Shown here one piece after another: positions 18,141 through 39,587 of a DNA stretch of 64,000 nucleotides; position 1 is the stretch's first letter; each line of letters starts with the position of its first letter. The notes beneath the pieces were generated by a model. The model worked only from the letters and a program-made list of their open reading frames with translations. It did not search any database and had not been told where the DNA came from. This DNA is from an uncultured Clostridium sp. (lineage in GTDB: Bacteria > Bacillota > Clostridia > TANB77 > CAG-508): NCBI GenBank assembly GCA_945919455.1, contig CAMEJH010000002.1, positions 4,492 to 68,491 on the forward strand, written 5' to 3'. Both the position numbers and the translations under genes were made by a program.

Positions 18141-18268
18141 AAGATTTCCTTTCTTTAATTTACATTATTCTTTACCATTTTTTTATTTTTTTCTCACACT
18201 ATTCTTATAAAATGTATTTATAAATTTTAAGGAAGTATATAATCATCAAAATTCTTTTTGAATCTTTT

Positions 18269-19290: not shown

Positions 19291-19472
19291 AATTTAAATA
19301 TATATTTCGTTAAAATTTGTCTAATCACGCCTGTTCTCGCTCTAGATTTGACCAAAGTGTGATAATTTTGCCTAAAAGTGCAAGAAATAAGCTCTTGCTA
19401 GAATCTGGCAATTTATTAATATTTCTACCGTTATAATGGTAAGTTTTAAACTTACGACCTTTGGGTTATGAG
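19285..19472. repeat. imperfect direct repeat of the tRNA-fMet 3' half plus ~150 bp of downstream flank (att-like left boundary of a ~20-kb island); includes a 35-nt tRNA 3' fragment at 19438-19472
   Basis: GGTAAGTTTTAAACTTACGACCTTTGGGTTATGAG parallels tRNA 39522-39556. The adjoining GACCAAAGTGTGA(T/C)AATTTTGCC...TGCAAGAAA... aligns with 39435-39500 at ~75% identity. Confidence 0.55.
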
Positions 19473-20027: not shown

Positions 20028-20417
20028 TTATCTTCCACCATTAATTAAGACTTTTAAATTATTCCATGTCCAATTGTATATTTTATCCGATGTTTTAGCA
20101 GCTTTTGGTTTTTTACAGATTTCGTTTGCTCTTCCATTTAAAAGAAAATATGGAATCCCCTCTTCTTGTGCTATTGATATTTCTGCAGAAACCCCTGTTG
20201 CCTCATCTGTATATTTACCACATATTACAGCTACAACATCACAGCCTTTTATTCTAGTTCTAGCTTTAGCTTTCCAATCATTGTCAATTGTTTCTTTTAT
20301 CGACATATCAGTTATCTCGAAAGGAGAATCTTCATTTCTCGCTTGTCCTACTAATAATGTTTTTAAATCAGAGTCATTGTCATAATCAAAGCTTATAAAT
20401 GTTCTTTTTTTAGACAT
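20028..20417 (-). CDS. TIR-like (DUF1863/MTH538-type) domain protein
   Basis: KRTFISFDYDNDSD opening typical of DUF1863 TIR-like proteins. 129 aa. Begins 18 nt after the caspase-like gene. Confidence 0.5.
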   Translation of the reverse strand: MSKKRTFISFDYDNDSDLKTLLVGQARNEDSPFEITDMSIKETIDNDWKAKARTRIKGCDVVAVICGKYTDEATGVSAEISIAQEEGIPYFLLNGRANEICKKPKAAKTSDKIYNWTWNNLKVLINGGR

Positions 20418-20435
20418 ATTATATCACCTCCATTT

Positions 20436-21404
20436 CTATATTTGTTTTTTATCTACAAGTCTCCAGTAATGATATCCTAGAGCAGTCAGTTTGCATGACT
20501 TAGAATTCATAGCGGCAAAATACATATGATCTTCATCTACTGGTACTACTAGTCCTACGCTAGCCAACTTTTGAAGTTCTTTAAATATTGCAACATTTTT
20601 TTCATCCGCATATGGTTCAATAACCTTATGTTCTATATCAATAGCATTAGTGTACTCGAATGATGGGTCTAACTTGAACTCTTCTTGTGGAGTTTTAAAA
20701 TATTTTGTTAGATTTCTAATAATACTAATTGGTACTTGTGGTTCTATTTCTCTAATTGAATTAAATTCTTTAACATTTGTTTTAAATATTGGTCTTTGAT
20801 CCCATTCTCCTAATGCTTGGTCAATATATGCATATATACTACTTGGCGTTATCTTTCCATTAATATTAGCAGCACCGCCTTTTAAACCTTCCAATAATAA
20901 ATTTGTAAATACACCATGTCCATTTATTTCTTTTGATGTTTCATAATCAAGGCTAGATGTAAGAATAGAAACTCCTTCAGATATTGTACATTCATATCCT
21001 GATTCTATACTTGGTTTGCCAATTGCTCCCGAATAACAACAATCAAGTATAATTATTTTGTTTCTAATTTTGGATGAATTTGCTATTTTCAGTATATCAT
21101 CCATTGAAATTCCCCAATCATTTTCTGTAAAATCTGGTGTAACTATATAGCCACCTAGTTCATTTATGTATCCGTGTCCAGAGAAATAAAATAGTGCTGT
21201 ATCAGTAGTTCCTTCAAATAGTTTTTTTATTAAACCTAATAACTCACCTTTTTTTTGAACATTTAATGCTGTTTTTACGTCAAAATTAGGAGAACCATCT
21301 CCATTAGTATCTATAATAGATGCCAATGCTGTTGCATCATTTATACAACAATTTAATTGGTTGTTTGGATAGTTATTTATCCCTACAATTAGTGCTTTAC
21401 TCAT
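20436..21404 (-). CDS. caspase-like peptidase (C14/metacaspase family) with a C-terminal ~130-aa domain of unknown function
   Basis: ALIVGINNY...CCINDA, catalytic His in FYFSGHG and catalytic Cys in IIILDCCYSG, as in metacaspases. Confidence 0.75.
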   Translation of the reverse strand: MSKALIVGINNYPNNQLNCCINDATALASIIDTNGDGSPNFDVKTALNVQKKGELLGLIKKLFEGTTDTALFYFSGHGYINELGGYIVTPDFTENDWGISMDDILKIANSSKIRNKIIILDCCYSGAIGKPSIESGYECTISEGVSILTSSLDYETSKEINGHGVFTNLLLEGLKGGAANINGKITPSSIYAYIDQALGEWDQRPIFKTNVKEFNSIREIEPQVPISIIRNLTKYFKTPQEEFKLDPSFEYTNAIDIEHKVIEPYADEKNVAIFKELQKLASVGLVVPVDEDHMYFAAMNSKSCKLTALGYHYWRLVDKKQI

Positions 21405-21514
21405 TTATCATACCTCCTCTTACTATAAATGAACGATTATCTCTCGATATCCTCATTTTTCTTTGTTTTTTATTTTTATTATTTTTATAATAATAATCTA
21501 GTATTTGTTTTTAT

Positions 21515-22084
21515 TTAATATTCTTTTAACTCACCACCACTTAGCCAATCCTTTAATGAAGTATATTTATTATTTACCTGTCCATCATTTACCCAAAAAT
21601 CATATTTACCACTTTTTTTATCTTTTGCATAATCAATATACGGATATATTCCTAAATATTCTAGCCCTTTATACTCATTGCTTCCATTATTTAAAATTGG
21701 TAATATTGCAGCTCTATTCTTTTTTCCATCTGCATATCCTAATTCCCAAGGGCACCACTTTGAATTAACAATATTTCCTGTAGCAATATAAGATAATCCT
21801 AAGCAATTATTTATTCGCTCTCTCAAAATTCTTGCTGTCTCTGATGATACATTTTCCCTGTCTTGCAATGAGCTTTCTTTCCAATCTATATAAACTTCAT
21901 ATCCTGCTTCTTCGAATTTTTCATATAATACTTCCACTAATTCTTTATCCATAAAACTATGCGAAATAAATAAATCATAATTTTTATTAACTATAAATTT
22001 TCTATTTTCTAGCAATAAAGAAAAATTATTAAAATTATTTTTTTTCTTTAATTCATTTTCTAAAAAGCTTTTAGTTAAAATCAT
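21515..22084 (-). CDS. TIR-domain protein (ThsB-like)
   Basis: DLFISHSFMDKELV...GYEVYID...SKWCPWELGYA contains the bacterial TIR motifs, including the conserved Glu in WCxxEL. Confidence 0.7.
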   Translation of the reverse strand: MILTKSFLENELKKKNNFNNFSLLLENRKFIVNKNYDLFISHSFMDKELVEVLYEKFEEAGYEVYIDWKESSLQDRENVSSETARILRERINNCLGLSYIATGNIVNSKWCPWELGYADGKKNRAAILPILNNGSNEYKGLEYLGIYPYIDYAKDKKSGKYDFWVNDGQVNNKYTSLKDWLSGGELKEY

Positions 22085-22185
22085 ATTTTCACCTCCAAAT
22101 TATTCATATATAACTGCTTATTTATTATATCAACTTAAATCTATTTTTTACATACTTAAAATGCGACAAAATAGTTATTTTTTAA

Positions 22186-22566
22186 CTATTTTGTCGCATT
22201 TTGTGTCATTTTATAATTTTCATAAAATTCATCCACATTATTTTTCTTTAAACATTCTCGAAGTGATTCTATAATTCTAACTTTCTCTTCTAGAGTAATA
22301 TTTTTACCTTTTAAAAATTTATCAGATATTTTTATGTATTCTTCTTCTGTTATTCTGTTTATTTCGAACAAATTATCTAAGCTTACTTCATATATATTAG
22401 CTAATTCTATTGCTTCTGTTATACTCATATCTCTTCTATTTGTTTCCCAACTTGAAACCTTTGAACGACTTATATCTAATTTTTCAGCCAACTGTTCTTG
22501 TGTAATTTTTTTACTTTTTCTTAATTCTTTTAATTTTTCTATTATTGCATAGTCCATATATTTCAT
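22186..22566 (-). CDS. XRE-family HTH transcriptional regulator
   Basis: ITQEQLAEKLDISRSKVSSWETNRR, the HTH_3 pattern. Confidence 0.65.
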   Translation of the reverse strand: MKYMDYAIIEKLKELRKSKKITQEQLAEKLDISRSKVSSWETNRRDMSITEAIELANIYEVSLDNLFEINRITEEEYIKISDKFLKGKNITLEEKVRIIESLRECLKKNNVDEFYENYKMTQNATK

Positions 22567-22683
22567 CCCTCTAGCTACTTATAACACATCTTTTATGCAT
22601 TTTTTGTCGAAACTTGTCAGTTGATATAAAAAAAGCAAAATAATTCTGTAAAACTAATTACATTATTATTTTGCTTTTTCAAA

Positions 22684-23913
22684 TTAATCTTTTTCTTTAA
22701 TCAACCAGTCCAATACATTTATCTTCTTTATTCCGTCAAAATCAGCATCTAAGTCATCATCTAATGTTAATATATATTTAGGATAATTATCGCTTATCTT
22801 CTTTAATGGAGCTAATTCTCTTTCTAATACGCTACTATTACCATCAGCAGATTCCCTTGTAGTTAATGCTACTTGATAATAAATTGTATTTTCTGAATTT
22901 TTTGCTACAAAGTCAACTTCTAAGTCATCATATTTTCCAATATAAACTTCATATCCACGCCTTAATAATTCAAGGTAGACTACATTTTCTAAGATATGTC
23001 CCATGTCTTTACCAGAGCCTTGACCTAACATATAATATCTAAGTCCTATATCTACTGCATAATATTTTTCCTGTGTTTTTAAAAATTCTTTTCCTTTTAT
23101 ATCATATCTATTTGCTTTATACACAATATAACTATCAATAAGTGCTTGAACATATGTTGAAACAGTATTATATGAATTATTTTTTTCAAGACCTTCAATA
23201 TTGTCACTTATGTTTTTCATACTTGTTCTATTTCCTATGTTATCATATAAATATTTAGTTACTCTTTCTAAGGTGTTTTTATCTGTTATTCCTTTTCTTT
23301 GCATTACGTCCTTAAATAAAATTGTATTGTATATTCCATCTAAAAACAAGTTAATATTTTCTGGATTAATTTTAAATAATTCGATTGCTTGTGGAAATGA
23401 ACTATATCGTAAATAATCTCTAAATTTTCTTGATAAATCTGTTTTATCTTCAAAAGCTGATAAATATTCTTTAAATGACAATGGCAACATTTTGATCTCT
23501 ATATATCTTCCTGTAAGTAATGTTGCAAGTTCTGATGATAAAAGCCAAGCATTTGATCCAGTTATATATAAATCAACATCTTTATTAATAAAAAGACTAT
23601 CTACTGTTTTTTCAAATTCACCAACTTTTTGAATTTCATCTAAAAATATATATGTTTTTTTACCTTTTACCAGTTTTGATTTTAAATATTCATATAATTT
23701 TTTTCTATCTTGTAATTCTTCATAATCTGCATCTTCAAAGTTGATTGATATGATTTGATTCTCTTCTACTCCATTTTCTTTCAAATAATCTTGAAATAAC
23801 TCTAATAAAGTAGATTTACCACATCTTCTAATTCCTGTTATTACTTTTATAATTTGTTGATCTTTGAAATTTCTTAATATAGATAAATAATCTTCTCTTT
23901 TTATTCTCTCCAT
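22684..23913 (-). CDS. AAA-family ATPase (AAA_14 + DUF4143 type)
   Basis: Walker A GIRRCGKSTLL, Walker B IFLDEIQ. ATG at 23913 with GGAGGAG RBS. The longer ORF to 23964 lacks an RBS. Confidence 0.7.
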   Translation of the reverse strand: MERIKREDYLSILRNFKDQQIIKVITGIRRCGKSTLLELFQDYLKENGVEENQIISINFEDADYEELQDRKKLYEYLKSKLVKGKKTYIFLDEIQKVGEFEKTVDSLFINKDVDLYITGSNAWLLSSELATLLTGRYIEIKMLPLSFKEYLSAFEDKTDLSRKFRDYLRYSSFPQAIELFKINPENINLFLDGIYNTILFKDVMQRKGITDKNTLERVTKYLYDNIGNRTSMKNISDNIEGLEKNNSYNTVSTYVQALIDSYIVYKANRYDIKGKEFLKTQEKYYAVDIGLRYYMLGQGSGKDMGHILENVVYLELLRRGYEVYIGKYDDLEVDFVAKNSENTIYYQVALTTRESADGNSSVLERELAPLKKISDNYPKYILTLDDDLDADFDGIKKINVLDWLIKEKD

Positions 23914-24086
23914 AAAATCTCCTCCAACTATTTTTATTATACTATTTTTTATTATTATAGTCAAGTTTTTTCAAATTTATGAAAAAACTTTTGAATTTTA
24001 TTAAGTTTTTTCATATCGAGAGTATAATAATATTATTTTTATCTATTAAAAACACTAAAACGACTATCAATAATAGCCGTTTTTTA

Positions 24087-24845
24087 TTAAAAAATACTTT
24101 CAAATTCTAAAGGAACTATATCTTCATATAATAAAGTAAACTGTGAATTAACTTGCCTATAATCATGATAATGTCCAAAATACCATTTATTAAACTTACA
24201 TTTTTCTGAAATTTCTTGTAAATAATCTGTTAAGATATCTTTTTTATAAGATGGATTCAATAGTGTTTGTATACTAGTTGGGCAACAATGAGAGATAATA
24301 TAATCAACTTTATAATTTACTTTTTCTAAATTCTTTATTCCGTTTTGCATTTCTTCTTCAGTTGGAAGTTCCAAATCCCACCATGAATAATCTCTTATTC
24401 TAAAATATGCACCCCTTTTTCTATATTCATATATTTTCTCTTCTTCATCTAAATTTAATATTCCATCTTGTATGTCATGTGACCTTGCACCACCAAATGC
24501 GAAAATCTTTTTATTATCTATTTCAAATATTTCTCCACGCATTAGATGTAATACTGAATCTCTTATTTTATGTACTTTACCACCATGCCACTCTTCTACA
24601 GGATATTTATATAATCTTGTAAAATTTTCGTGATTTCCATCTACAAATAATGTTGTAAAATTCTTTTCATCTAGATAATCCAACCAATACTTTTCTTGTA
24701 TATTTTCTTTTTCAAATGTCCAAACTCCACCAAAGTCGCCACATATTATTACATAATCATCTTTGGTCATTTCATTTTGAATTGGGAAGTTTTCGATTAA
24801 AAATCTGCTAAAATCAGCATGTGTATCTCCTGTAATGTAAATCAT
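24087..24845 (-). CDS. calcineurin-like metallophosphoesterase
   Basis: MIYITGDTHAD...ICGDFGG...GNHE motifs. Confidence 0.65.
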   Translation of the reverse strand: MIYITGDTHADFSRFLIENFPIQNEMTKDDYVIICGDFGGVWTFEKENIQEKYWLDYLDEKNFTTLFVDGNHENFTRLYKYPVEEWHGGKVHKIRDSVLHLMRGEIFEIDNKKIFAFGGARSHDIQDGILNLDEEEKIYEYRKRGAYFRIRDYSWWDLELPTEEEMQNGIKNLEKVNYKVDYIISHCCPTSIQTLLNPSYKKDILTDYLQEISEKCKFNKWYFGHYHDYRQVNSQFTLLYEDIVPLEFESIF

Positions 24846-24871
24846 AACGACTCCTTTCTATTATGAATTTA

Positions 24872-25243
24872 TTATATTATACTATATACCCTCCTTTTTA
24901 AATTTATAATTACTATCCATATTGTTAAATTGACTATAAAAGATATCAATATAATATAAATCAAATTGAGTTTATTAAAATTATAACATAAAAAACTAAT
25001 TAAAGCGGTATTAAAAATATAATTTATGCAATATAATGCACATCCTAGCCAACTTGGGTGTCTTCCCTTTTCATAAATACTTGACGTTAGAAAAAAAGAA
25101 AGCATATGTAATATAGTCCCTCCAATAATTATGTTAAAAATATCTGCATATACACTTGATTCAAAATACATTGCATATGGATTTGATAAGCAAAACTGTC
25201 TTATAAATACACTTAGTATATTAAATACCTTATACATATACAA
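24872..25243 (-). CDS. small integral membrane protein
   Basis: 123 aa, with three or four hydrophobic helices. Confidence 0.35.
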   Translation of the reverse strand: MYMYKVFNILSVFIRQFCLSNPYAMYFESSVYADIFNIIIGGTILHMLSFFLTSSIYEKGRHPSWLGCALYCINYIFNTALISFLCYNFNKLNLIYIILISFIVNLTIWIVIINLKRRVYSII

Positions 25244-25292
25244 CCTCCTTTATAAATTTTTAGGCATCTAGATAAAAGATGCCTATATTATT

Positions 25293-25631
25293 TCATTTTT
25301 TGAATAACTGCTTAATTCGTTCAAATAGTCCTTTTTTATTATTTTTTTGTTGATAGCTTTCTAACCATTCAACATTATTATCTGTTATATAATAATGTGA
25401 CCTACATGGTATACTAAAGTTACCTATTGATGGTCTAAGTGTAATTGCTTGTCCATCATATTTCATTACCCATCCATATTTTTTATCGATAGGAGTTACA
25501 GTTCTTTCACCACATCCGCATGCACATCTATGTACAATAACATTACAACTAATGCACACATACAAAATACCATCCTTTAAGTTTGAAGGAATTTTATCAA
25601 CAAACTCAACTTTAAATTTATTAGTTTTCAT
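25293..25631 (-). CDS. Cys-rich (zinc-ribbon-like) small protein, operon partner of the E1-like gene
   Basis: CISCN...HRCACGCGER cysteine cluster. Overlaps the E1-like gene's stop by 11 nt. Confidence 0.4.
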   Translation of the reverse strand: MKTNKFKVEFVDKIPSNLKDGILYVCISCNVIVHRCACGCGERTVTPIDKKYGWVMKYDGQAITLRPSIGNFSIPCRSHYYITDNNVEWLESYQQKNNKKGLFERIKQLFKK

Positions 25632-26781
25632 GTACTATTTCTCCCATCTCAATTGAATAAACATTTTGGCATTGAGTATCATCATTTTCATATATTTTAA
25701 AATATTTTTTCCATTCTATAACTGCTATTGTTGCATTTAAAGCATTACATTCTGCAATTTGAATATTTGTATTATATACATCATTACCATCTTCATCAAA
25801 ATCAAGATATATAGGAATTCTGTCGTAATTAGTTTTGTTAAAGACAGTAGTTCTTACCTGACCATTTATAGTGTCATTTATATTTTGTAGCCCAATTCCT
25901 GTATCTATAAATGGTATTTCTTCTAAGACAAGATAATCTGTAATTAATTTTCTTGCTATTCCTGAATCAATACATATAAATACAAAATCCATATCTTTTA
26001 ATACACTAACATTTTCTTCTTTAATAAACATGTCATGTTCTATTAAATTTTTATGCATATTTTGATAATTTGCTTTAAAATAGCTTACCTTTGACATACT
26101 TTTTGGAAATATTTCTTTACTCGCTGCTCCAGGACTTCTAAAAGCATTATGCTGACAAAATACATCACCATCAATCAAATGTATTTCTTTGACATTAGTT
26201 TTCGAAACTAAATCAAGTATATATGCTCCAGTTCCTCCAAGTCCAATAATTGCTATTTTTTTGTCCAACATTTTTCTATTGCAATTGTCAATTCCTGCTC
26301 TTGATGAATTTGTATCAATATATTGAAATACTGATTCTTCTTCTGTTACCACTTTTTTAAATGTTTTTGCAGTTACTGAATTATCTTTATCTATTGCTCT
26401 AGAAGAAATTATATTAATATAATTTACAAATTTTTCATAATAATCTTTATAATTTTCATCTGGTTTATTTGAAAATGAGCGTTTCACATTTATTCCAGCT
26501 AAAATTGAATTGCTGGCACTATGCTTTATTTGTGTAATTTCTGTTCCATCTGCATTACAAGGTTGATCTCCTGAAAAATATATAACATGGTCTCCATTAT
26601 ACTTAGCCTTATCACCTTCAAAAGCAATGCTTGACACTAATGTACCATAATCTATTTCTCCATTTGCTTTCAAGTATGGGATATGGGAAACAATCCCATA
26701 TCCATTATTTACATCTAATTCATATCCTTCATTTTGAAGTTTTTTCAAATCATCGCTATGATTTATTAGTTCTTGTGACAT
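25621..26781 (-). CDS. E1-like (ThiF/MoeB/UBA-family) adenylyltransferase with an N-terminal ~170-aa extension (possible E2-like domain)
   Basis: Rossmann IAIIGLGGTGAYILDL and LIDGDVFCQHNAFRSPG (the DxDxV...N..R adenylation motif). N-terminal extension has a single Cys in GDQPCNADG. Confidence 0.6.
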   Translation of the reverse strand: MSQELINHSDDLKKLQNEGYELDVNNGYGIVSHIPYLKANGEIDYGTLVSSIAFEGDKAKYNGDHVIYFSGDQPCNADGTEITQIKHSASNSILAGINVKRSFSNKPDENYKDYYEKFVNYINIISSRAIDKDNSVTAKTFKKVVTEEESVFQYIDTNSSRAGIDNCNRKMLDKKIAIIGLGGTGAYILDLVSKTNVKEIHLIDGDVFCQHNAFRSPGAASKEIFPKSMSKVSYFKANYQNMHKNLIEHDMFIKEENVSVLKDMDFVFICIDSGIARKLITDYLVLEEIPFIDTGIGLQNINDTINGQVRTTVFNKTNYDRIPIYLDFDEDGNDVYNTNIQIAECNALNATIAVIEWKKYFKIYENDDTQCQNVYSIEMGEIVHEN

Positions 26782-27019
26782 TTATCCTCATTCCTTTCTT
26801 AACCATAACTACTTGTCCCTTTAATAAAAAACCATTTGGTTTTTCATTATTTCCTTTAAAATAAATTACAGTATAATTTGTAGAATCATTATCTTCATAA
26901 TGTCCAAAAGCTAATCTTATAACTTCCTCATATGAAATTTTTTCTTTTGCTACCTCTTTTTCTTCACCATTTATAAAAATAGTGATTTCATGTTTGTTTT
27001 TTAATTTTTCTTCTATCAT
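26756..27019 (-). CDS. small beta-grasp/ubiquitin-like (multiubiquitin-type) protein
   Basis: 87 aa with an EITIFINGEEKEV...ISYEEVIRLA pattern. Overlaps the E1-like start by 26 nt. No C-terminal Gly-Gly. Confidence 0.35.
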   Translation of the reverse strand: MIEEKLKNKHEITIFINGEEKEVAKEKISYEEVIRLAFGHYEDNDSTNYTVIYFKGNNEKPNGFLLKGQVVMVKKGMRINVTRTNKS

Positions 27020-27090
27020 TTATAATCTTTCCTTTCTTTAAAAAATAAGCAAAAGAACAAGGCAATGCAACTTTAGGCCTTGTTCTTATT

Positions 27091-27321
27091 TTATCCTCTA
27101 GGAGGATATGGATCTTTACCATAAGTATTCTTACTTTGAATTCTTCCATTTAATCCATGTATTATATGTTCAGAATTATTCTGTTTGGCAATTAATCTTC
27201 CAGCATTTTGAGCATCTTGCTTAGTAGCATATGTATTGATTGCCTTTGATGTATTTTCAAATTTGTTTTGCCAACCATTTTTGTTATGAACAGTATGTAC
27301 ATTTTTGTTCATTTTTTTCAC
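27091..27321 (-). CDS. DUF2188-family small protein
   Basis: HVVHNKNGWQNK...DAQNAGRLIAKQN...YGKDPYPP matches the DUF2188 pattern. Confidence 0.5.
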   Translation of the reverse strand: MKKMNKNVHTVHNKNGWQNKFENTSKAINTYATKQDAQNAGRLIAKQNNSEHIIHGLNGRIQSKNTYGKDPYPPRG

Positions 27322-27461
27322 CTGCCTTTCATAAATTTTCTATAAAAGGCTTGCAATATTTTATTATAAATGATATAATTTTAATACTATAAACACTTGC
27401 AAGCCGTTTATGCTGTAAGTTTTTTGAAAAAAGTTAGGGCCTAATCTAGCTTTTTTCTTTT

Positions 27462-28199
27462 TTATTTTATGTCTTCCATAACTAACTGATTCTTAATACT
27501 TTTATCATCATTTGTATCTTTTATTCTTATTTCAGCTGCTTGTTTAGAAACTCCACAAGTTTCAGATATTTCTTTTGCCATTTGTTTTATATCCTTATTA
27601 TTATAATTTTCTGAATAATATTGCTTTATTAATCTTCTAGGCATCAATATTGATGCTCCAAAATAATTTGCTTGCCATTCTAGCCAATCCAAATCTGTTT
27701 TTAATCCACCTGCAATAACTTTATTATCAACTACATCTCTATTTAAACACTTTATGCAATCATTATCTGTTATATCTCCTATAATATCAAATAAATTTAT
27801 TTGATTTTCATCTTCTATAAATTCTTTTCTATGTAAAATCCAATGTCCCAATTCATGTGCTAATGTAAATTGATATCTTCCTTGTAGCTTCAAGTCGTTA
27901 ATCAGTATTTCATTCAAGATAATAGTTCCTTTTTCAAATTTCTTCTTGCAAGGTGTACTATCCTCATTAATCACATCAACATATCCAGTTTTAAATATTG
28001 TCATGCCTAATAAATCACCATTTTCATCTAATTTTTGGTATTCAATTTTTAAATTCAATTTAAATTCTGCAATACTTTCTAAATCAATAATATTTAACTC
28101 TTGCAATGAATTAGGTGAATATTCTTCCAGAAATCTAATAGCTTCATTGTCTATATCACCTTTACATAATATTTTACTTTTTCTTATTTTCATCACCAT
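27462..28199 (-). CDS. ImmA/IrrE-family metallopeptidase (DUF955)
   Basis: HEXXH motif TLAHELGHWILH. Overlaps the upstream XRE gene. Confidence 0.7.
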   Translation of the reverse strand: MVMKIRKSKILCKGDIDNEAIRFLEEYSPNSLQELNIIDLESIAEFKLNLKIEYQKLDENGDLLGMTIFKTGYVDVINEDSTPCKKKFEKGTIILNEILINDLKLQGRYQFTLAHELGHWILHRKEFIEDENQINLFDIIGDITDNDCIKCLNRDVVDNKVIAGGLKTDLDWLEWQANYFGASILMPRRLIKQYYSENYNNKDIKQMAKEISETCGVSKQAAEIRIKDTNDDKSIKNQLVMEDIK

Positions 28200-28512
28200 C
28201 TTTCTTGTTTCTTTTCATATCCCTTAGCAGTGTAATAACTTGTAAATTTTCTTTAACAAATTCTTCTACATCTGCTGGAATTGTATCTTTTGCTTTTCCT
28301 GCTAAATCATATAATTCTCTTTGTTCTTCTTCATCTAATTTTAATATTTCAATAACTTTTTGTAGTTTTTCATATGATAAAGCATTTCTTCTATTGTTTT
28401 CCACATCACTTAAATATGCTGGTGATATGTCAAGTTCTTTTGCTAACATTCTTAAGGACATTTCTTTTTCTTTTCTTTTATTGGTTAAATATTCACCAAA
28501 TGTTATATTCAT
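28174..28512 (-). CDS. XRE-family HTH regulator paired with ImmA/IrrE
   Basis: MSLRMLAKELDISPAYLSDVENNRR. Confidence 0.7.
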   Translation of the reverse strand: MNITFGEYLTNKRKEKEMSLRMLAKELDISPAYLSDVENNRRNALSYEKLQKVIEILKLDEEEQRELYDLAGKAKDTIPADVEEFVKENLQVITLLRDMKRNKKDGDENKKK

Positions 28513-31282: not shown

Positions 31283-32975
31283 TTATTTTAATCTCCCTTT
31301 CATATGTTTCAGATAACAAATCTGTAATTTTTATTTTTATATTAGTTGCATTATCAGGTATTTCATATTCACCATTTACTAAATCATTTTTTTCAGCAAT
31401 ATCAATCATCTTTGGCTCCATAACTGCACCATCATAATTCCAGTCAATCATTATTGATTCTACCATTTGCTTCCAATCTTCAACATATTCTTTTTGCAAG
31501 CTTAACTTTTGTAATAAATTCATTGGATAGAACTCTTTTATTTTCAATTTATTGTCTTCTATTTCTATAACAGCCTCCGAATCACGCTTGAATTGTAAAT
31601 TTGCTTTGTCTTTCAGTATGTCCAATATTTCTATATCTATATTATAGTTACTCAAATCCTGCTCAAGTGTTGGTTTTATATCTGGTTCATGACCCATACA
31701 TACAATTGTTATTTTTTCAACTGGTTCAAAAGGATTTTCAGCTTTTCTTTTTTCAAACTTTTGATATGGAAGATTGGCTTTTAGTTCTTCTAAATCTGAT
31801 TTAGTAGCAATTCTATTTACAGGCATGATTTTTATCATTCTACCATCTAATTCTCCATCATAAACACTATTTCCATCAAATTTCTGTATTCCTAATGCGT
31901 CAATTAATAAATCTTTTGCTTCTATAGGATTTCTAAAGAAATCATAATTATTTACATTATATACTTCAAATCCTGTATATTTATCATTTTCTAATTCTTT
32001 AGCTATATTTATTAATCTTTTTGTTGTAGTTTGTATAGCACCTAAATTTATATCTGCCCCTATAAACTTTCTTCCTAATTTCATTGCAACCGCTTGAGTT
32101 GTACCACTTCCCATAAAACAGTCAAATACAATATCCCCTGGATTTGAAGATGCACTTATTATTCTTTCTATTAATGCTTCAGGTTTTTGCGTTGGATATT
32201 GTAATCTTTCAATTGCCTGTGAATTAATATATGGAATATCCCAAACATCTCTCATACTTGACCATCTATATACACCATCTTCATCTTCAAAAAATTCTGT
32301 ATCAGCTGCTCCATAATTTACAATTCCAGCTTTTCTACCTTTTGCCTTTGTATATGATTTTTCTTTTTGCTCATTAAACACTCTATTTTCACTTTTAGTA
32401 TATAGAAAAATATTATCATGCTGCTTATTAAATTCATTTTTACCTCCAGCAGCAGTTTTATAAGACCAAATAATTTCATTTACAAAATTACTTGTTCCAA
32501 AAACTTCATCACATAACATTCTCAAATGATGTGCTTTATGCCAATCACAGTGTATATAAAAACTCCCTTTGTCAGATAATAACTCTTTTAATAAAATTAA
32601 TCTTTCATACATAAATTGTAAATACTCATCATTTGTCCATATATCACCATATTGTTTTTCTTCAAATGAATTATTATCATTACATATCTTTCTCCCTTTT
32701 AAACTAATTGTTTTTTTGTAATCTGCCTTAGAATCAAAAGGCGGATCAATATATATTAAATCTATTTTTCCCCTATATTCTCTTAACATATGGCTCATTA
32801 CTTGAAGATTATCTCCCCAAAATATCTTATTAATCCAATCATCCTTCATTTCACCATATTTTTCTTTTAATTGTGCAGGATAATAATCTGTACCTCTATA
32901 TGGTCTTTTTCCTGTCCAATGTAATTCTGGATATCCCTTTATTGTATTTATTCTATCAAATTCAAAATCACTCAT
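31275..32975 (-). CDS. mod: Type III restriction-modification Mod subunit (N6-adenine/N4-cytosine DNA methyltransferase)
   Basis: DPPF motif (IYIDPPFDS) and AdoMet-binding FDCFMGSGTT. Confidence 0.8.
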   Translation of the reverse strand: MSDFEFDRINTIKGYPELHWTGKRPYRGTDYYPAQLKEKYGEMKDDWINKIFWGDNLQVMSHMLREYRGKIDLIYIDPPFDSKADYKKTISLKGRKICNDNNSFEEKQYGDIWTNDEYLQFMYERLILLKELLSDKGSFYIHCDWHKAHHLRMLCDEVFGTSNFVNEIIWSYKTAAGGKNEFNKQHDNIFLYTKSENRVFNEQKEKSYTKAKGRKAGIVNYGAADTEFFEDEDGVYRWSSMRDVWDIPYINSQAIERLQYPTQKPEALIERIISASSNPGDIVFDCFMGSGTTQAVAMKLGRKFIGADINLGAIQTTTKRLINIAKELENDKYTGFEVYNVNNYDFFRNPIEAKDLLIDALGIQKFDGNSVYDGELDGRMIKIMPVNRIATKSDLEELKANLPYQKFEKRKAENPFEPVEKITIVCMGHEPDIKPTLEQDLSNYNIDIEILDILKDKANLQFKRDSEAVIEIEDNKLKIKEFYPMNLLQKLSLQKEYVEDWKQMVESIMIDWNYDGAVMEPKMIDIAEKNDLVNGEYEIPDNATNIKIKITDLLSETYEREIKINE

Positions 32976-32986: not shown

Positions 32987-35869
32987 TTATTTTTTACAAT
33001 AAAATCTCAAATCACAGTTATCACATATAGTTTGTGATTTAGATTTATTTTTAAATTCTTTACATTCTATTTTATTTACTATTTTATCAAACTCTTTTAT
33101 TGTTTCTTTTACATCATCTTCTCTATTATAAAATGTAATTGTTGGTACTCCATTTTTTTCTCCTGTATAATATAAGTGCATTTTACTTACTTTTTTCCCT
33201 GTTTTCTTTTCAACTAAATATGCATATATTTGTAACTGTCTTTTATACCTCTCAAATTTTTCAGGATCAGAAAATATGTCAGGTTTTTTTTCAGATTTGA
33301 AATCTACAATTTCAACAGTTTTTTCATTTCCTTCTATTAAATCTACTACTCCATTTAATATATAATTTGGTTTTACAAGGCCAATCTGTACTTCTGCATC
33401 TTGTACTTTTTTCCAATTATCACTTTGTTTTTCTGCATATCTAATTACTTGTTCTAATGCAACATCTAATTGTGGTTTACCCAAATATGAATGTTGCACT
33501 TTAGATATTGCCTCATAGTTTGTATCAAACCAAATTTTTATATTATCTCTATTTATTTTTTCATATTCTTTTTTTATAGCAGCCTTATGAATATCTTCTA
33601 TTGTTTGATGTATTAATTGTCCAAATATTGTTGCACCAACTCTTACAGGTGAAAAGCCTAATTCCTTTAAAAACTTATATTGTAATGAACAATTTTCATA
33701 TACCGATATATGTGATGTAAATGAATACGTATTTTTTATATTTACTGGTTTTATATTACTTATCTTTACTTTATCTAATTCAATTATTTCATCAGTATAG
33801 TATGGCAATTCATTATATATCTCTTTAAAATAATCACTCGGTTGTTTTCTGCCTTGATCTTTTTCATTACAAGTCAATAACAACAAATTTTGTGCTCTTG
33901 AAAATGCTGTATAATATAATCTCCAAAAATCAAAATATTTAATATCTTCTTTGGGTTCAAAAGATTTTCTATGATAATATTTTTTTTCTATTTCAATTAA
34001 TTTTGAATTATTTTTTTCTCTTGGAACATTTCCTAATGAATCAACAATTACAATTGGAAACTCCATTCCTTTTGCTTGATGTATTGTTGAAAATGTTATA
34101 CATCCACTTGGAGCATATTCTGATTCATCTTCATATTCACTCATTCCGCCATCTTTTAAAAATCTCAAATATGTATTAAAGAATGTTTCCACATCTTTGG
34201 TAATTCTCTTTGGTGTAAATACATCTATATGCTGTAAATAATCAAATCTAGCAATCATTTGTGTAAATATTGATATATTCCTTATTGGCCTTTGATCAAT
34301 TACTCCATTATTTAAATCTATATTTAAAAATCCTCTAAATGGTTCAAATTCAAATAATTTATACAATAATCCTGTAAATGCATAATCTGTATTTGCAAAT
34401 AAATTCATATGACTTATTCCTGAATTTTTAATAAACAACTTTAATTGTTCATCACTACAAATAAATCCTTCAATTGATTTTATACATTCTTCATAATATG
34501 TAAATAATCCTTCATTTTTTAACTTAAAAGATCTATTTCTTAATTTTAATAAATATTGTGGAAATACTAATAATAATGCCCCTATTAGTCCTTTTATTTC
34601 TTCTCGCTCAAAAAACATATTCGATCTTGGAGAATATACATTAACTCCATTTTTTTCAAGATAATTTGCTAACTCTACTACTTTTGCCCCTCTTACAGAA
34701 TTGAATAACATAGCAATTTGATTATAATTATCTATTATTTTTTCTTCTTTCAATTTTATAATAAATTTTAAAATTTCTTTCTGCCAATCTTCTTCGCTAT
34801 CATTAACTCCTATTTTCATTACTGTAGGTTTATCGCAAATATCATTTCTTCCTGGAATCATTTCTTTATCAAATCTATATTTATCCCATTTAAAACTAAA
34901 GCTTTCTCCATCAGTTGTTTTCATCCATTTATTATAAAAATCAATAATACCTCTTTCTGACCTAAAATTAGTTTCTAATTTTATTTTTTTGCATTCATGA
35001 CTTTCAAATTTTTCTGGAAATTCAATTATATTCCTTATTGTTGCACCTCTAAACCTATATAATCCCTGATCATCGTCACCCACAACACAAATATTCTGTT
35101 CTTTACCTGCCAACATAAAAGTTAACTGTTCTTGTACATAATTAGTATCTTGATATTCATCTATCATTACATATTTAATTTTTTCATTTATCTTCTTTAA
35201 AATATTCGGATTATTAATTAACAATTCATAAGTTTCCGTTTGTATATGTGTAAAATCAATATAATTTAATTTTAAAATCATATCATTATATAATTTAATT
35301 ATTTTCCCTATAGTAACTATTTCTGGATTATCATCACTTATTAATTGATTTATATCTACTAATTCTTCATTAATATTATTTATATAATCTGCAATATGTT
35401 GTGATAATCTCCATCCACTAATTTGATGTTGAAATAACAAATTAAAATCTTCTATTTTTTCAAATTTACTTAAATTTTGGTAAATTAAATATTCTTGTTC
35501 AAATTCATCTATCATTCTATAATTCTTTTTTAAATTTGTATATTCAATATTTTCTTTCAATATTCTCAAACAAATCGAATGAAATGTTCCAATATACATT
35601 TCATTAATATTTACATACATATCAAGTTTATCTAATTCATTAGTTATTCTTGTTACAATTTCCTTCGCAGCTTTCTCAGTAAAAGTTGCAATCATTATAT
35701 TTTCAGGCTTTACACCTTTTTCTGCAATTAAATATATCGTTCTTTGAACTAAAGTATACGTTTTTCCTGTTCCCGGACCCGCAATAATTAATAGAGGTCC
35801 TTCTGTTGTTTTAATAGCTTCTCTTTGACTAGCTGTTGCATTTTCTAGATTAATCATTTTTATCATCAC
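32987..35869 (-). CDS. UvrD/PcrA-like SF1 helicase fused to a C-terminal Cas4/RecB-like PD-(D/E)xK nuclease with a Cys cluster
   Basis: Walker A AGPGTGKTYTL. Nuclease core VVDLIEG...EIVDFKSEKK. Terminal CDNCDLRFYC. Confidence 0.7.
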   Translation of the reverse strand: MMIKMINLENATASQREAIKTTEGPLLIIAGPGTGKTYTLVQRTIYLIAEKGVKPENIMIATFTEKAAKEIVTRITNELDKLDMYVNINEMYIGTFHSICLRILKENIEYTNLKKNYRMIDEFEQEYLIYQNLSKFEKIEDFNLLFQHQISGWRLSQHIADYINNINEELVDINQLISDDNPEIVTIGKIIKLYNDMILKLNYIDFTHIQTETYELLINNPNILKKINEKIKYVMIDEYQDTNYVQEQLTFMLAGKEQNICVVGDDDQGLYRFRGATIRNIIEFPEKFESHECKKIKLETNFRSERGIIDFYNKWMKTTDGESFSFKWDKYRFDKEMIPGRNDICDKPTVMKIGVNDSEEDWQKEILKFIIKLKEEKIIDNYNQIAMLFNSVRGAKVVELANYLEKNGVNVYSPRSNMFFEREEIKGLIGALLLVFPQYLLKLRNRSFKLKNEGLFTYYEECIKSIEGFICSDEQLKLFIKNSGISHMNLFANTDYAFTGLLYKLFEFEPFRGFLNIDLNNGVIDQRPIRNISIFTQMIARFDYLQHIDVFTPKRITKDVETFFNTYLRFLKDGGMSEYEDESEYAPSGCITFSTIHQAKGMEFPIVIVDSLGNVPREKNNSKLIEIEKKYYHRKSFEPKEDIKYFDFWRLYYTAFSRAQNLLLLTCNEKDQGRKQPSDYFKEIYNELPYYTDEIIELDKVKISNIKPVNIKNTYSFTSHISVYENCSLQYKFLKELGFSPVRVGATIFGQLIHQTIEDIHKAAIKKEYEKINRDNIKIWFDTNYEAISKVQHSYLGKPQLDVALEQVIRYAEKQSDNWKKVQDAEVQIGLVKPNYILNGVVDLIEGNEKTVEIVDFKSEKKPDIFSDPEKFERYKRQLQIYAYLVEKKTGKKVSKMHLYYTGEKNGVPTITFYNREDDVKETIKEFDKIVNKIECKEFKNKSKSQTICDNCDLRFYCKK

Positions 35870-35919
35870 CTATTTCATTTCTTAATACATTCCATTTTTC
35901 TTTATCGTTAAGTATAAAA

Positions 35920-36168
35920 TTATATATGTCTGCTGGTAGTTCTCCGTCTTTCTTTAGCAGCAAGATCAAAAAATCTTGTTTTCTCTGTTTGATTTAATTC
36001 TAATGCATTTGCTATATTGATTTGAGTATTTATGTCTGGAGGATTCTTCTTTCCACTCATTAAATCTAACAAATATGGGTGAGTAATTTTTGATAAAGAA
36101 GCTATTTTTCTAATTGAGTTTTTATTGGATTTACATTTTCTATTTAAAAAACTACTAAACTTATTCAT
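35920..36168 (-). CDS. small HTH (XRE-like) protein
   Basis: SIRKIASLSKITHPYLLDLMSGKKNP. Confidence 0.4.
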   Translation of the reverse strand: MNKFSSFLNRKCKSNKNSIRKIASLSKITHPYLLDLMSGKKNPPDINTQINIANALELNQTEKTRFFDLAAKERRRTTSRHI

Positions 36169-36346
36169 TTGAATCCCTTTCTATGATAACCGGTATATAC
36201 CAGTTACCATATATTAAATCACATATTAAGTGTAAAAACTATTACATTTACATTAAGTTTTTGTTACAAAGTCCATTTTTTTGTAATATTTTCTTGACTA
36301 TTTATTTTTATTAAGCTTAAATACACAACCAACTGGAGGTGATAAT

Positions 36347-36619
36347 ATGAATTCAAAGACCATTCTATCTCTATATAATGGAGATTATTCTTGTATTGAA
36401 AGACCTATACCAAAAGATTCCAAATATGCTAAAGCATTGTCTAAATGTACTGACTTGCAAGAAAAATTAGCTCAATTAGTGGATAAAGAAACCTTTTCTT
36501 TAATAGAAAAAGTTTTAGAATATCAAAGTGAATTATCTGCTATTGAAATGGAAGAAGTATTTTCAGAAGGCTTTTCTTTAGCTGTATCTTTACTGCTGGA
36601 AGCGATTTCAAAGGAATAA
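36347..36619 (+). CDS. hypothetical small helical protein
   Basis: GGAGGTG RBS 5 nt upstream of ATG. 90 aa. Confidence 0.4.
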   Translation: MNSKTILSLYNGDYSCIERPIPKDSKYAKALSKCTDLQEKLAQLVDKETFSLIEKVLEYQSELSAIEMEEVFSEGFSLAVSLLLEAISKE

Positions 36620-36836: not shown

Positions 36837-38591
36837 TTATTTATTATCATCTAATTTTACTAATGGCTTATAACTTTGTAATGCTTCAATTCTTATATCT
36901 TGTATTTTATTTATCCCTTTTAAACTGTTTACATACTTTTGTAATTCATCCTTATATTTTTTATCCATATATTTATAAAAAATATTCCAAATATAGTGTA
37001 TCCACTTCCATTCTTTTTCGGTAATTTCCCCACTTATGTCACTAATAAAATAATTATTCCTTCTAGCTTTTGTAATAAATCTTTCAAATTGAATTTCTTT
37101 ATTTGATTGTATAAAAGCATTATCTATCCATCTTAACTTTTGTACATCAAATTCTTTCTCTTGAAACGATTTTTCAATCATCTCAATCTTTTCAATATAA
37201 TATTTCTCTTCTGCGTCTTTATTATAGTCGTTCACATATGTTCTTAGTTTTTCACAATTTTCATATTTCAATTCAAATCTATCAATTGTATTTTCATATA
37301 AATCTTTCTCTTCTTTATAATAGTTTTCAAATAGAACTGATTTAAATGATTTTTTTAGCTTTGATTCATCATACTTTACATCAAGTGCATTACACCAGTC
37401 TAATATATTATAAATATCATCTATAAATTCATCTAAACAAGTATATGTATATTGGTTCTCTATAATTAAATTATATTTGTCATTAACTATTTTTTTTATT
37501 TTCTCTTCATTTAAATAAAATATATTCTTTTCATCCTTAGAATTTATATATTGTTCTATAACTTGATTCATCTCATCAATTAAGTTTTTGGTATGATTTC
37601 CTTCAAATATTGCTAAAACATAATGGACTAATACTGCTTCTTTATTTATAATAAGAGAGGAATGAAAGTAATGTCTCTCTATTCTTGCCTCAATGTCTTC
37701 GTCTAGTCTTCTAGAAAAAGTATCATAATAATCAGAATTTTTCTCTTCCTTTCCTTTTTTAGGTTCAAATAAATTCTCTGTTTTTTCAATAGCGACTGCC
37801 ATACATGACTTTAATATAACTAGATTTATATTAGGATATTCTTTATATATGTACATATTTAATATTTCTAAAAATAAATTTACCCCTTTATTTATAGTTC
37901 TTAAATTATCTATTGGAAAATTTTCTATAAAATTTTCAACAAAATCATTTAATTCCTTTTCATCTATATATTGGTTTAATTTTGATATTACTATTGAATT
38001 AATTGCTTCTTTTGAAAATTTTGATATCTTATATTCCTTTTCAATTATTTTTTCTTTAAAAGAATTCCAAACTTCTTTATCCTCTTCATTTATCCTACTT
38101 TCATCACCAATCAACACAATTTTTATTTGCTTGCACAATGATAATTGTTCTATTATTCCTAATATATCTTCAATTGCAATTTTGCTACTTTTTCTTTCTA
38201 AGTCGTCTATAACTATTACTAGATTTTCTTCCTCTTTTAAAATTGAATAATACTCTTCAATAACTGATTTTGATTTTATTTCTGGTGAATTAATGCTAAT
38301 TCCGTTATAAGATATTGATCCACTAATTTTCTTTGCTAATTCCTTTCCTTTTTTCCAAAATTTCAGTTTTGAATTAGCTTTTTTAAATAATTCTTTTGCA
38401 ATTTCTTCTTGAATTACTTCAATATTATCCTTACCAAACAAGCTAATATATATTGCATTGTTTTTACTTTCTATATATTGATTTGTATAAAAACTTTTTC
38501 CTATTCCCCATCTTCCATTTATTAATATTTTTTTATATGTATTATCTTTTTCAAAATTTTTTAAAATTTCAAGTATGCTTTTTGATTCCAT
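36837..38591 (-). CDS. KAP-family P-loop NTPase
   Basis: INGRWGIGKSFY (GxWGxGKS of KAP NTPases). 584 aa. Confidence 0.65.
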   Translation of the reverse strand: MESKSILEILKNFEKDNTYKKILINGRWGIGKSFYTNQYIESKNNAIYISLFGKDNIEVIQEEIAKELFKKANSKLKFWKKGKELAKKISGSISYNGISINSPEIKSKSVIEEYYSILKEEENLVIVIDDLERKSSKIAIEDILGIIEQLSLCKQIKIVLIGDESRINEEDKEVWNSFKEKIIEKEYKISKFSKEAINSIVISKLNQYIDEKELNDFVENFIENFPIDNLRTINKGVNLFLEILNMYIYKEYPNINLVILKSCMAVAIEKTENLFEPKKGKEEKNSDYYDTFSRRLDEDIEARIERHYFHSSLIINKEAVLVHYVLAIFEGNHTKNLIDEMNQVIEQYINSKDEKNIFYLNEEKIKKIVNDKYNLIIENQYTYTCLDEFIDDIYNILDWCNALDVKYDESKLKKSFKSVLFENYYKEEKDLYENTIDRFELKYENCEKLRTYVNDYNKDAEEKYYIEKIEMIEKSFQEKEFDVQKLRWIDNAFIQSNKEIQFERFITKARRNNYFISDISGEITEKEWKWIHYIWNIFYKYMDKKYKDELQKYVNSLKGINKIQDIRIEALQSYKPLVKLDDNK

Positions 38592-38624: not shown

Positions 38625-39332
38625 TCATCTACTACTTTGATAATTTTTTACTTTTTTTATATATTCTTTTTTAAATAAGAAATCATTAATGTCTTGTAAA
38701 TATAATTTTAGTATCTTTTCAATTTGTTCTTGATTCTTCTTTATTTTATTAACATACTTCTTTTTCAGCTCTTTTATTTCATCTTTGAATGCTATATTAT
38801 ACTTCTCTGTATCTCTAAATTTTGATATAACCTCATAACTTTCTACATTATCTATGTCTTTGGTGGTATATCTTTTTACGTGTACATGTGCTCCTCTTAT
38901 TTCTATTATTCTTTTAAATCTATCAATTGCATTGTTTGTAGAGTTATCTATTACAGTAAAATCAGCATTAAAATCGTTTTCTTCTTTGTACTCCTTTAGA
39001 CTTCTTTTTATTGTCTTTGTTAGTTTTGATATTCTAGATTTCAAAATATATATCTCATTCAAATATGCACTATATATAAATTTCAAATAGTCTACTTTTG
39101 TCACTCTAGGATAAAAAGGAAACGAATTTCTATATATTAAGCAGTTCTTTATACTCTCATATGTCGCATTTAAATCAGTATATTCTTCAAATATCTTTAA
39201 TCTTGCCTTTTCATTATCGGTTAATTTGTCCATATTGAATTTATTTCTTTCAATACTCTCTATAACTTTTGAAATATTTTCAGTAATATTATAAATTAAT
39301 ATTTGAATATCATCTTCCATATATTGCTCCAC
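38625..39332 (-). CDS. hypothetical protein upstream of the KAP NTPase
   Basis: 235-aa ORF, no recognisable motif. Confidence 0.4.
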   Translation of the reverse strand: MEQYMEDDIQILIYNITENISKVIESIERNKFNMDKLTDNEKARLKIFEEYTDLNATYESIKNCLIYRNSFPFYPRVTKVDYLKFIYSAYLNEIYILKSRISKLTKTIKRSLKEYKEENDFNADFTVIDNSTNNAIDRFKRIIEIRGAHVHVKRYTTKDIDNVESYEVISKFRDTEKYNIAFKDEIKELKKKYVNKIKKNQEQIEKILKLYLQDINDFLFKKEYIKKVKNYQSSR

Positions 39333-39371
39333 TTCTTTTTTATTTTTTCCCCAATTATACCACTTCCTGTA

Positions 39372-39587
<216 letters not shown>

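Follow-up and report, generated by a model that had tools for sequence, protein, structure and literature searches.

A UvrD-Cas4-type helicase-nuclease gene heads a mobile three-gene cassette with Type III-like methyltransferase and Res-like genes in an uncultured Clostridium

We analyzed a helicase-nuclease gene, here called HelNuc, in a 64,000-nucleotide stretch of DNA (the window) from an uncultured Clostridium sp. (GenBank assembly GCA_945919455.1, contig CAMEJH010000002.1). HelNuc, a UvrD-Cas4-like fusion, occupied 32987..35869 of the minus strand in its longest form, an open reading frame (ORF) that began with GTG at 35869. Because this 960-codon ORF lay in DNA of 26% GC and had strong domain matches, we did not consider it a chance ORF. 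An initial annotation, made by a model from the sequence alone, gave the product as 960 amino acids (aa). This is the length of the ORF from GTG, but the product is probably a 956-aa protein (32987..35857) that starts at the ATG at 35857, because homologues start at the fifth ORF codon and a GGTGA Shine-Dalgarno sequence lies 7 nucleotides (nt) before that ATG. Downstream on the same strand were a DNA methyltransferase gene (Mod) and a gene for a Res-like protein. The features of these genes and of the region just upstream are listed in Table 1.

Table 1. Features of the HelNuc, Mod, and Res-like genes and of the adjacent upstream region, in window coordinates
Feature	Position	Strand	Basis or remarks
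UvrD/REP helicase N-terminal ATPase domain of HelNuc, aa 12-288	35006..35836	-	Pfam PF00580 UvrD-helicase, 2.3e-73
Walker A of HelNuc, GPGTGKT	35759..35779	-	Within AGPGTGKTYTL, aa 30-40
Helicase motifs of HelNuc, DEYQD (aa 237-241) and GDDDQ (aa 264-268)	within 35006..35836	-	
C-terminal PD-(D/E)xK/Cas4-like nuclease domain of HelNuc, aa 719-959	32993..33715	-	PDDEXK_1 (PF12705), 8.8e-23; Cas_Cas4 (PF01930), 8.6e-7
Predicted catalytic residues of HelNuc, D843, E853, D856, and K858, with QxxxY motif	nuclease domain	-	Alignment
HelNuc cysteines C727 and C949/C952/C958	33689..33691; within 32996..33025	-	
Mod, beta-class N6/N4 DNA methyltransferase, 566 aa	31275..32975	-	N6_N4_Mtase, 3.5e-54; PADLOC MTase_III, 7.2e-66
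Variable central region of Mod, aa ~160-250	32226..32498	-	Column conservation 0.09-0.40 versus 0.6-0.9 in flanks
Res-like subunit, 886 aa	28622..31282	-	SF2 ATPase and C-terminal TnsA-like PD-(D/E)xK endonuclease; 8-nt overlap with Mod
82-aa gene with weak XRE-like helix-turn-helix (HTH)	35920..36168	-	Own ribosome-binding site; HTH_19 E=0.04, HTH_3 E=0.14, both below cutoff
30-bp near-palindrome, 18-nt arms, 89% complementary	36182..36211		Just upstream of the ribosome-binding site of the 82-aa gene

The Walker A string and the C-terminal PD-(D/E)xK core on which the initial annotation had based its description of HelNuc were both present, and Pfam matched the corresponding domains strongly (Table 1). 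The motor also matched AAA_19 (3.5e-21) and UvrD_C (PF13361, 2.1e-18); AAA_11, which spanned aa 13-82, scored 24.6 bits, under its cutoff of 27. The nuclease core string, VVDLIEG...EIVDFKSEKK, covered aa 841-862, and the terminal stretch was CDNCDLRFYCKK. A search with the C-terminal half of the protein yielded, at E <= 1e-30, 242 sequences that each represent a 50%-identity cluster, most of them 940-1000 aa in length.

Mod carried the motifs DPPF (motif IV) and FxGSGTT (motif I), and it matched MboIIA (1.7e-23) and EcoP15I Mod (4zcf_A, 3.5e-21) in the PDB sequences. It started 11 nt past the HelNuc stop codon, which was overlapped by the Mod Shine-Dalgarno sequence, AAGGGGG. The variable central region of Mod is a probable target-recognition domain, judging from its column conservation. 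In the Res-like protein we identified the motifs GLGKT (aa 135-139) and DEAH (aa 297-300) and the nuclease residues D800, E814, and K816. Its Pfam match was to Tn7_TnsA-like_N (6.3e-6) instead of RE_endonuc, and ResIII, at 22.4 bits, fell just short of its cutoff of 22.5. No PADLOC restriction-enzyme model matched the Res-like protein, and no PDB sequence match was obtained with the full protein, with a 20-sequence profile, or with the isolated nuclease domain. The AlphaFold2 model of this protein was poor, with a predicted local distance difference test (pLDDT) score of 64 and a predicted template modeling (pTM) score of 0.35. Foldseek searches with that pLDDT-64 model gave weak matches to TnsA and EcoP15I Res (4zcf_C, E 8.5e-3) and nothing at E<=0.001. 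The initial annotation had placed HelNuc in a defense island beside Type III restriction-modification (RM) genes, and that setting held for these Type III-like neighbors.

We found 36 intact, non-identical cassettes in which the same three genes recurred together, and their sources included many phyla as well as plasmids, integrative and conjugative elements (ICEs), and prophage-like contigs. In each, HelNuc preceded the same N6/N4 methyltransferase gene, behind which came a gene for a Res-like protein of about 870 aa. The gap between HelNuc and Mod was -13 to +23 nt (or held an inserted gene), and the gap between Mod and the Res-like gene was -14 to +11 nt; the few gap outliers were artefacts of longest-ORF start calling. 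No terminator-like site was found inside the window cassette, and a promoter scan was uninformative in such AT-rich DNA (63 sites versus 71 expected). In three homologues with 57-59% identity, from Butyrivibrio, Hydrogenoanaerobacterium, and Clostridium algoriphilum, the order and strand of the triad were the same, and the flanks were unrelated (an ICE, a prophage edge, and a conjugative type IV secretion system). Intact cassettes were found in GTDB genomes at loci L001, L003, L005, L006, L007, L009 (Anabaena), L010 (Flavobacterium), L013, L014 (Moraxellaceae), and L015. Two other GTDB loci with at least 41% identity were damaged: L008 had decayed, and L016 had a frameshift and ran off the end of its contig. 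Generic UvrD matches (<40% identity, helicase region only) had neither a Mod nor a Res-like partner. HelNuc was almost certainly the first gene of a conserved HelNuc-Mod-Res-like operon that forms one three-gene unit, not the stand-alone single-protein defense that had been proposed from the sequence.

The linkage was also examined from the other side, with the Res-like protein as the seed for a reciprocal search of IMG/VR that gave 31 loci. HelNuc and Mod were present at all of these loci that had enough upstream DNA, and no intact Res-like gene lacked HelNuc; at two loci, HelNuc deletion remnants lay alongside a truncated Res. Pairwise distances between the three proteins were correlated in Mantel tests (HelNuc-Res 0.97, HelNuc-Mod 0.79, and Mod-Res 0.80; p<=5e-4). 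In a neighbor-joining tree, built with no bootstrap and with generic UvrD sequences left out, the RM-linked HelNuc sequences, including that of the window, formed one clade.

These data bear on the idea that HelNuc is an independent single-protein helicase-nuclease defense that merely shares an RM operon. HelNuc does have a complete motor and nuclease, and single-protein helicase-nuclease defenses, such as Nhi and Hna, do exist. Moreover, the sister-clade loci L011 and L012 lacked RM genes, and HelNuc was intact at L008 despite the decay of Mod and Res. Against these observations stand the fixed gene order and translationally coupled spacing in the 36 cassettes, the failure to find an intact Res-like member without HelNuc, and the HelNuc-Res distance correlation (r = 0.97). 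In addition, HelNuc had no evident self/non-self sensing domain in Pfam and no full-length PADLOC model. We therefore regard an independent function as decidedly unlikely.

Some loci, but not the window, had extra genes between HelNuc and Mod. In one subclade the insert was an approximately 267-aa family (L090 5252-6061, L091 5132-5950, L092 5471-6268, L093 5218-6021, and L096 5404-6036) with 49-88% identity between lineages. Unrelated inserts were seen in L013, L009, L015, and L110, those of the first three having no significant Pfam match, and Spirosoma plasmid pSLIN01 carried two more hypothetical genes at this position. We rejected the inserted gene as a general fourth subunit, given that one family was confined to a subclade, the others were unrelated, and the window had none.

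HelNuc residues were compared first across 20 aligned homologues and then across the 36 cassettes. The Walker A motif (G31-T37), DEYQD, and GDDDQ were invariant in the 36 cassettes. Nuclease residues H754, D843, D856, K858, Q878, and Y882 were likewise invariant, and E853 was E in 34 cassettes and D in 2. The four cysteines, C727 and C949-x2-C952-x5-C958 (C…CxxCx5C), were kept in 36/36, so the terminal Cas4/AddB-type cysteine cluster noted in the initial annotation proved to be a fixed feature of these cassettes. A C…CxxCx5C pattern with one distal cysteine has the spacing that we take to be that of the AddB and Cas4 iron-sulfur (Fe-S) clusters. In the Res-like protein, the GxGKT, DEAH, and D..ExK motifs were invariant across the same cassettes.

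The AlphaFold2 model of HelNuc (pLDDT 72, pTM 0.62) had pLDDT values of <50 at the cysteine segments, 706-743 and 941-960. Its best full-length Foldseek match was AddA (4ceh_A, E 3.6e-25), and UvrD/PcrA/Rep, AdnB, and RecB came next; the AddA-like organization suggested earlier was thus borne out. The earlier proposal of an Nhi-like organization was not, since the helicase was of the UvrD type, and an Nhi model was absent among the best 25 PADLOC matches of HelNuc.

Classification with PADLOC gave partial matches only, to GajB and DRT-helicase models in the motor and to Cas4 in the nuclease (3.7e-15). No PADLOC model matched HelNuc over its full length. The protein scored 52.1 bits with the NCBIfam model for CRISPR-associated Cas4 (cas4, TIGR00372), for which the cutoff is 65; Rfam identified no CRISPR family, and no cas genes were nearby.

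The GajB models were the best PADLOC matches of the HelNuc motor, with values down to 8e-55. This result could be taken to favor a role as a GajB-like end sensor or activator, in which HelNuc would sense the DNA ends left by its partner nuclease and hydrolyze nucleotides or allosterically activate the Res-like protein, its own nuclease being minor. However, the GajB matches were limited to the generic UvrD core (aa 6-320), and no GajA-like (OLD/ATPase-TOPRIM) neighbor was present. From the (near-)invariance of the nuclease residues and the four cysteines in the 36 cassettes, we argue that the nuclease is used, and we consider a GajB-like role very unlikely.

Plasmids, ICEs, transposons, and prophage-like elements carry the cassette from one bacterium to another. 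The triad was found on the conjugative plasmids pEC369 of Enterococcus, pVAS19 of Vibrio, and p1 of Nitrosomonas eutropha, as well as on Spirosoma pSLIN01. On Nitrosomonas eutropha p1, the trb operon contained a transposon-like insert, and the triad lay within it. RefSeq labeled the genes generically, as 'ATP-dependent DNA helicase', 'site-specific DNA-methyltransferase', and 'TnsA endonuclease N-terminal domain-containing protein'.

In the window, a tRNA-Met gene was located at 39512..39587, and a partial copy of its 3' half (24 nt, 39533-39556) was located at 19449..19472. About 150-170 bp of downstream flank was repeated as well (19260-19411 versus 39345-39510), and no such repeat was expected by chance. 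The repeat of the tRNA-Met 3' half therefore bounds a genomic island of about 20 kb, from about 19.47 to 39.51 kb. No integrase gene was seen inside the island in the window; the metagenomic lineages L086 and L087 have an integrase and a DUF6076 gene beside the cassette.

The window cassette was a recombinant of these two lineages. The segment 36845..32478 was 92% identical to L087, and the segment 32252..19459 was 99.2% identical to L086. The junction, 32252..32478, matched neither lineage and fell in the variable middle of Mod (aa ~160-250). Consistent with this, HelNuc was 97% identical to its L087 counterpart and 87% identical to that of L086, whereas the Res-like protein was 100% identical to that of L086 and 89% identical to that of L087. 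The three Mod proteins differed in length: 566 aa in the window, and 585 and 624 aa in the other two lineages.

The scores of HelNuc with the NCBIfam equivalog models for core repair helicases were far under the cutoffs: 245 versus 911 bits for PcrA, 211 versus 1144 for UvrD, 203 versus 951 for Rep, 129 versus 708 for AddA, and 88 versus 696 for RecB. Orthology with PcrA, UvrD, Rep, AddA, or RecB was ruled out by these scores, in agreement with the initial annotation, which had set HelNuc apart from core PcrA/AddA. The closest solved sequences in the PDB were indeed PcrA (4.8e-53), UvrD, and Rep, which is what one would expect if HelNuc were a housekeeping PcrA/UvrD/AddA orthologue that sits beside RM genes by chance. 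However, the 3- to 8-fold deficit in equivalog score, the position of the gene in an island of about 20 kb flanked by a tRNA-Met direct repeat, and the presence of homologues on plasmids and ICEs leave that explanation next to no probability, and we consider it refuted. No AddB/RecC/RecD-like partner or second helicase-nuclease gene was found in the 64-kb window, as had been stated of AddB, and homologous loci had no such partner either.

We also considered relatives of HelNuc in other contexts. The 44%-identical sequences of L011 and L012, which had no RM partners, were the sister group of the RM-linked clade in the neighbor-joining tree; L012 had an RNase_T-domain gene downstream, and L011 had an N-terminal fusion. 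In Fusobacterium vincentii (L123 8007-14684), the gene for a 919-aa UvrD-PDDEXK_1/Cas4 protein with 32.5% identity was followed immediately by SbcD- and SbcC-like genes. These genes sat between RlmN and a class A penicillin-binding protein, a housekeeping repair context, and the protein fell outside the sister group in the tree. The PLSDB record in question (2.1 Mb, labeled as a plasmid) resembled a chromosome and carried no annotation. At about 25% identity, relatives in Elusimicrobia and Actinobacteria again had an N6_N4 methyltransferase and a ResIII protein behind them, and the ResIII protein in Elusimicrobia had a canonical RE_endonuc domain. The association between a helicase-nuclease and Type III genes thus recurs at two evolutionary depths. 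The canonical Res partners of distant relatives matched Peptidase_S24 (LexA-like) near the C-terminus (L020 8575-12189, 5.9e-8; L018 10712-14107, weak, 0.0029).

The Fusobacterium context favors reading HelNuc as a damage-control or repair module. In such a module, HelNuc would resect host breaks made by the restriction enzyme, for example after entry of the cassette into an unmethylated host, and would help to repair them, alleviating restriction. A RecB/AddB-like recombination role, described as 'ancillary', was suggested for UvrD-Cas4 fusions by Hudaiberdiev, Shmakov, Wolf, Terns, Makarova, and Koonin (2017, BMC Evol Biol 17:232; PMC5704561). The HelNuc fold was also closest to that of AddA. 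However, no Chi-recognizing or AddB-like partner accompanied HelNuc, and the tree placed the repair-context relative outside the RM-linked clade. The cassette crosses phyla on plasmids, ICEs, and prophage-like contigs, and its hosts have their own repair enzymes; in addition, the linkage was obligate from the Res side too. A Type III enzyme requires sites that are unmethylated in both strands and so already spares hemimethylated self DNA, which likewise counts against a need for damage control. We judge a repair role to be unlikely.

The interpretation that we prefer is that HelNuc is the helicase-nuclease subunit of a mobile three-component Type III-like RM cassette and degrades DNA after the Mod/Res cut; we assign it a probability of roughly 0.55. 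In the first step, Mod would methylate a short site and so mark self DNA, with the specificity coming from the variable central region; the DPPF motif suggests that the mark is N6-methyladenine. In the second step, a Mod/Res-like complex on unmethylated incoming DNA would use the Res SF2 ATPase, and the TnsA-like PD-(D/E)xK domain would nick or break the DNA. These two steps are proposed by homology with Type III enzymes. In the third step, HelNuc would load at the nick or at a 3' end and translocate 3'-5' as a UvrD/AddA-type motor. The strand would be fed into the Fe-S-stabilized Cas4/RecB-type nuclease, so that a single cut would lead to processive and irreversible degradation that needs no host AddAB/RecBCD. 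The third step is modeled on the architecture of HelNuc and on the analogies of AddA/RecB, Cas3 after Cascade, and UvrD after a MutH nick. This functional order is also suggested by Dcm and Vsr, the other reported partner pair of UvrD-Cas4 proteins, because that pair likewise consists of a methyltransferase and a site-specific nicking enzyme. By these analogies, we would give even odds that HelNuc acts as a downstream degradative effector.

Several points weigh against this interpretation. Canonical Type III enzymes need no such partner. The co-divergence of the three genes follows from co-inheritance alone, and because the window cassette is a recombinant of two lineages, tight co-adaptation is not needed at that divergence. 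A HelNuc-type enzyme is not intrinsically restriction-specific, because relatives occupy non-RM contexts (Fusobacterium, L011, and L012). The Fe-S cluster is predicted from the cysteine pattern only, and any kinship of the Res-like protein with true Type III Res is tentative, given its weak sequence and model matches. Finally, contact of HelNuc with Mod/Res, or action on their products, is posited by analogy.

A bolder and more tentative proposal, to which we give a less than even chance, is that the cassette represents a distinct, obligately three-component RM class. In that class, Mod and the TnsA-like Res would only recognize DNA and license its degradation by a nick or single cut, and the UvrD-Cas4 protein would be the true degrader. 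Phages often inhibit host RecBCD/AddAB, and a system of this kind would be self-sufficient where they do so. It would also be invisible to current defense finders, the Res-like protein having no PADLOC model. If the three genes cooperate as we propose, then they make up a widespread restriction system, found in many phyla, that has its own DNA-shredding motor, and this would explain how a few-cut Type III-like enzyme could irreversibly destroy an invader without host RecBCD/AddAB. The cassettes are probably under-counted in defense-system censuses because the RefSeq labels are generic and no PADLOC model covers the Res-like protein. For the window, HelNuc should be read as part of the neighboring RM system rather than as a separate single-gene defense.

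The initial annotation had placed a small HTH gene upstream of HelNuc. An 82-aa ORF with its own ribosome-binding site was indeed present, but its HTH matches were sub-threshold (Table 1) and it was confined to the closest relatives; L087-L089 encoded a protein with 96% identity, and no other cassette had one. The near-palindrome upstream is a candidate operator. About one-third of the other cassettes had a small DNA-binding gene of an unrelated family at the same position: HTH_26 (L090 and L093), HTH_3 (L009), HTH_17 (L001/L002, L006, and the distant L018), or MazE/AbrB (L086). Replacement by non-orthologous genes points to a regulator of the controller type rather than a core component, and the 82-aa gene is possibly such a regulator, judging from these sequence comparisons. 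A DUF6809 gene (2.5e-17) at 36347-36619 (+) was divergent from the 82-aa gene, was kept with it at 69-70% identity in L087-L089, and was missing from other cassettes.

Between the cassette and the tRNA-Met gene were two further genes, one for a 584-aa KAP-family P-loop NTPase (36837-38591, -), which matched the PADLOC candidate system PDC-S49 (7.7e-21), and, upstream of it, one for a 235-aa protein with no family match (38625-39332, -). The 82-aa ORF, the DUF6809 gene, the KAP NTPase gene, and the 235-aa gene were rejected as cassette components; they were absent except in the closest relatives. Downstream of Res, the region 20028-28512 (-) was 99.2% identical to L086 and contained candidate defense genes (Pfam annotations were taken from L086). 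These were an HTH_3 and Peptidase_M78 (ImmA-like) pair, DUF2188 and AAA_14/DUF4143 genes, a Multi_ubiq, ThiF/DUF6791, and BubE ubiquitin-like module, and a trio of TIR_2, Peptidase_C14 (caspase-like), and ThsB_TIR genes. Outside the island, a second RM-like pair at 14038-16174 (-) consisted of a D12-class Dam-like N6-adenine methyltransferase (3.8e-76) beside a DUF6996/DUF6997/DUF7226 protein. NUDIX, ASCH, and PRiA4_ORF3 genes were located at 16331-18823, and a Spo0A-like response regulator gene was located at 5779-6567 (-; Spo0A_C, 1.3e-13). Together with the GC content of about 26%, the Spo0A-like gene points to a host among the low-GC, endospore-forming Firmicutes (Clostridia-like).

The cassette shares several features with classical Type III RM systems (EcoP15I/EcoP1I, Mod2Res1). 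These include a beta-class Mod that has a central variable region and is related to EcoP15I Mod, a Res or Res-like protein with an SF2 DEAH ATPase and a C-terminal PD-(D/E)xK domain, the mod-res order, and overlapping genes. However, classical systems have two genes, whereas the window clade always has HelNuc as a third. Compared to EcoP15I Res, the Res-like protein had no sequence match and a weak fold match from a low-confidence model, and its nuclease was TnsA-like, not RE_endonuc. HelNuc resembles AddA, RecB, and AdnB in that one polypeptide carries a UvrD-type SF1A motor and, after it, a RecB-family nuclease, and these proteins include its best full-length structural match. HelNuc differs from them in being shorter (by about 200-300 aa), in lacking both a partner subunit and any evident Chi-scanning element, in scoring far under the family cutoffs, and in occupying a mobile defense island rather than a repair locus.

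Other defense systems also combine a helicase with a nuclease. The Nhi protein of Staphylococcus has a nuclease and an SF1 helicase in one defense polypeptide, the nuclease being N-terminal and the helicase of the DNA2/Upf1-like SF1B type, whereas the HelNuc motor is of the UvrD/SF1A type and N-terminal, its nuclease is C-terminal, and its gene is embedded in a triad. Gabija and Cas3 systems likewise pair a nuclease with a helicase (UvrD-like or of another type) to defend against phages, and GajB was the best PADLOC match of the HelNuc motor. Unlike Gabija, HelNuc has no GajA/OLD partner, and its GajB matches were partial (aa ~6-320 of 960). Cas3, a helicase with an HD nuclease, is the model of a helicase-nuclease shredder licensed by a recognition complex. 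In the cassette, the proposed discrimination between self and non-self would depend on methylation and not on CRISPR RNA.

A monophyletic UvrD-Cas4 fusion was described from genomes by Hudaiberdiev et al. (PMC5704561). Its commonest neighborhood was Type III Mod and Res, sometimes with HTH/WYL regulators, and its second context was Dcm with the nicking enzyme Vsr (PMC5704561). These authors proposed an ancillary unwinding or cleavage role in defense and gave no mechanism or experiment (PMC5704561). In the literature that we searched, no later or experimental work on the helicase-nuclease/Mod/Res triad was found. By its sequence, the window HelNuc belongs to this group, which was defined computationally, and shares with it an SF1 helicase, a pfam12705 nuclease, Mod/Res neighbors, and the monophyletic fusion, and the three-gene association was already described in outline. 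In contrast to that description, the Res partner of the window clade is non-canonical, TnsA-like, and unrecognized by PADLOC and PDB sequence searches. What appears to be new here, judging from the sequence comparisons, is that the linkage is obligate from the Res side, that the three genes co-diverge, and that the Res partner is an atypical, TnsA-like protein.

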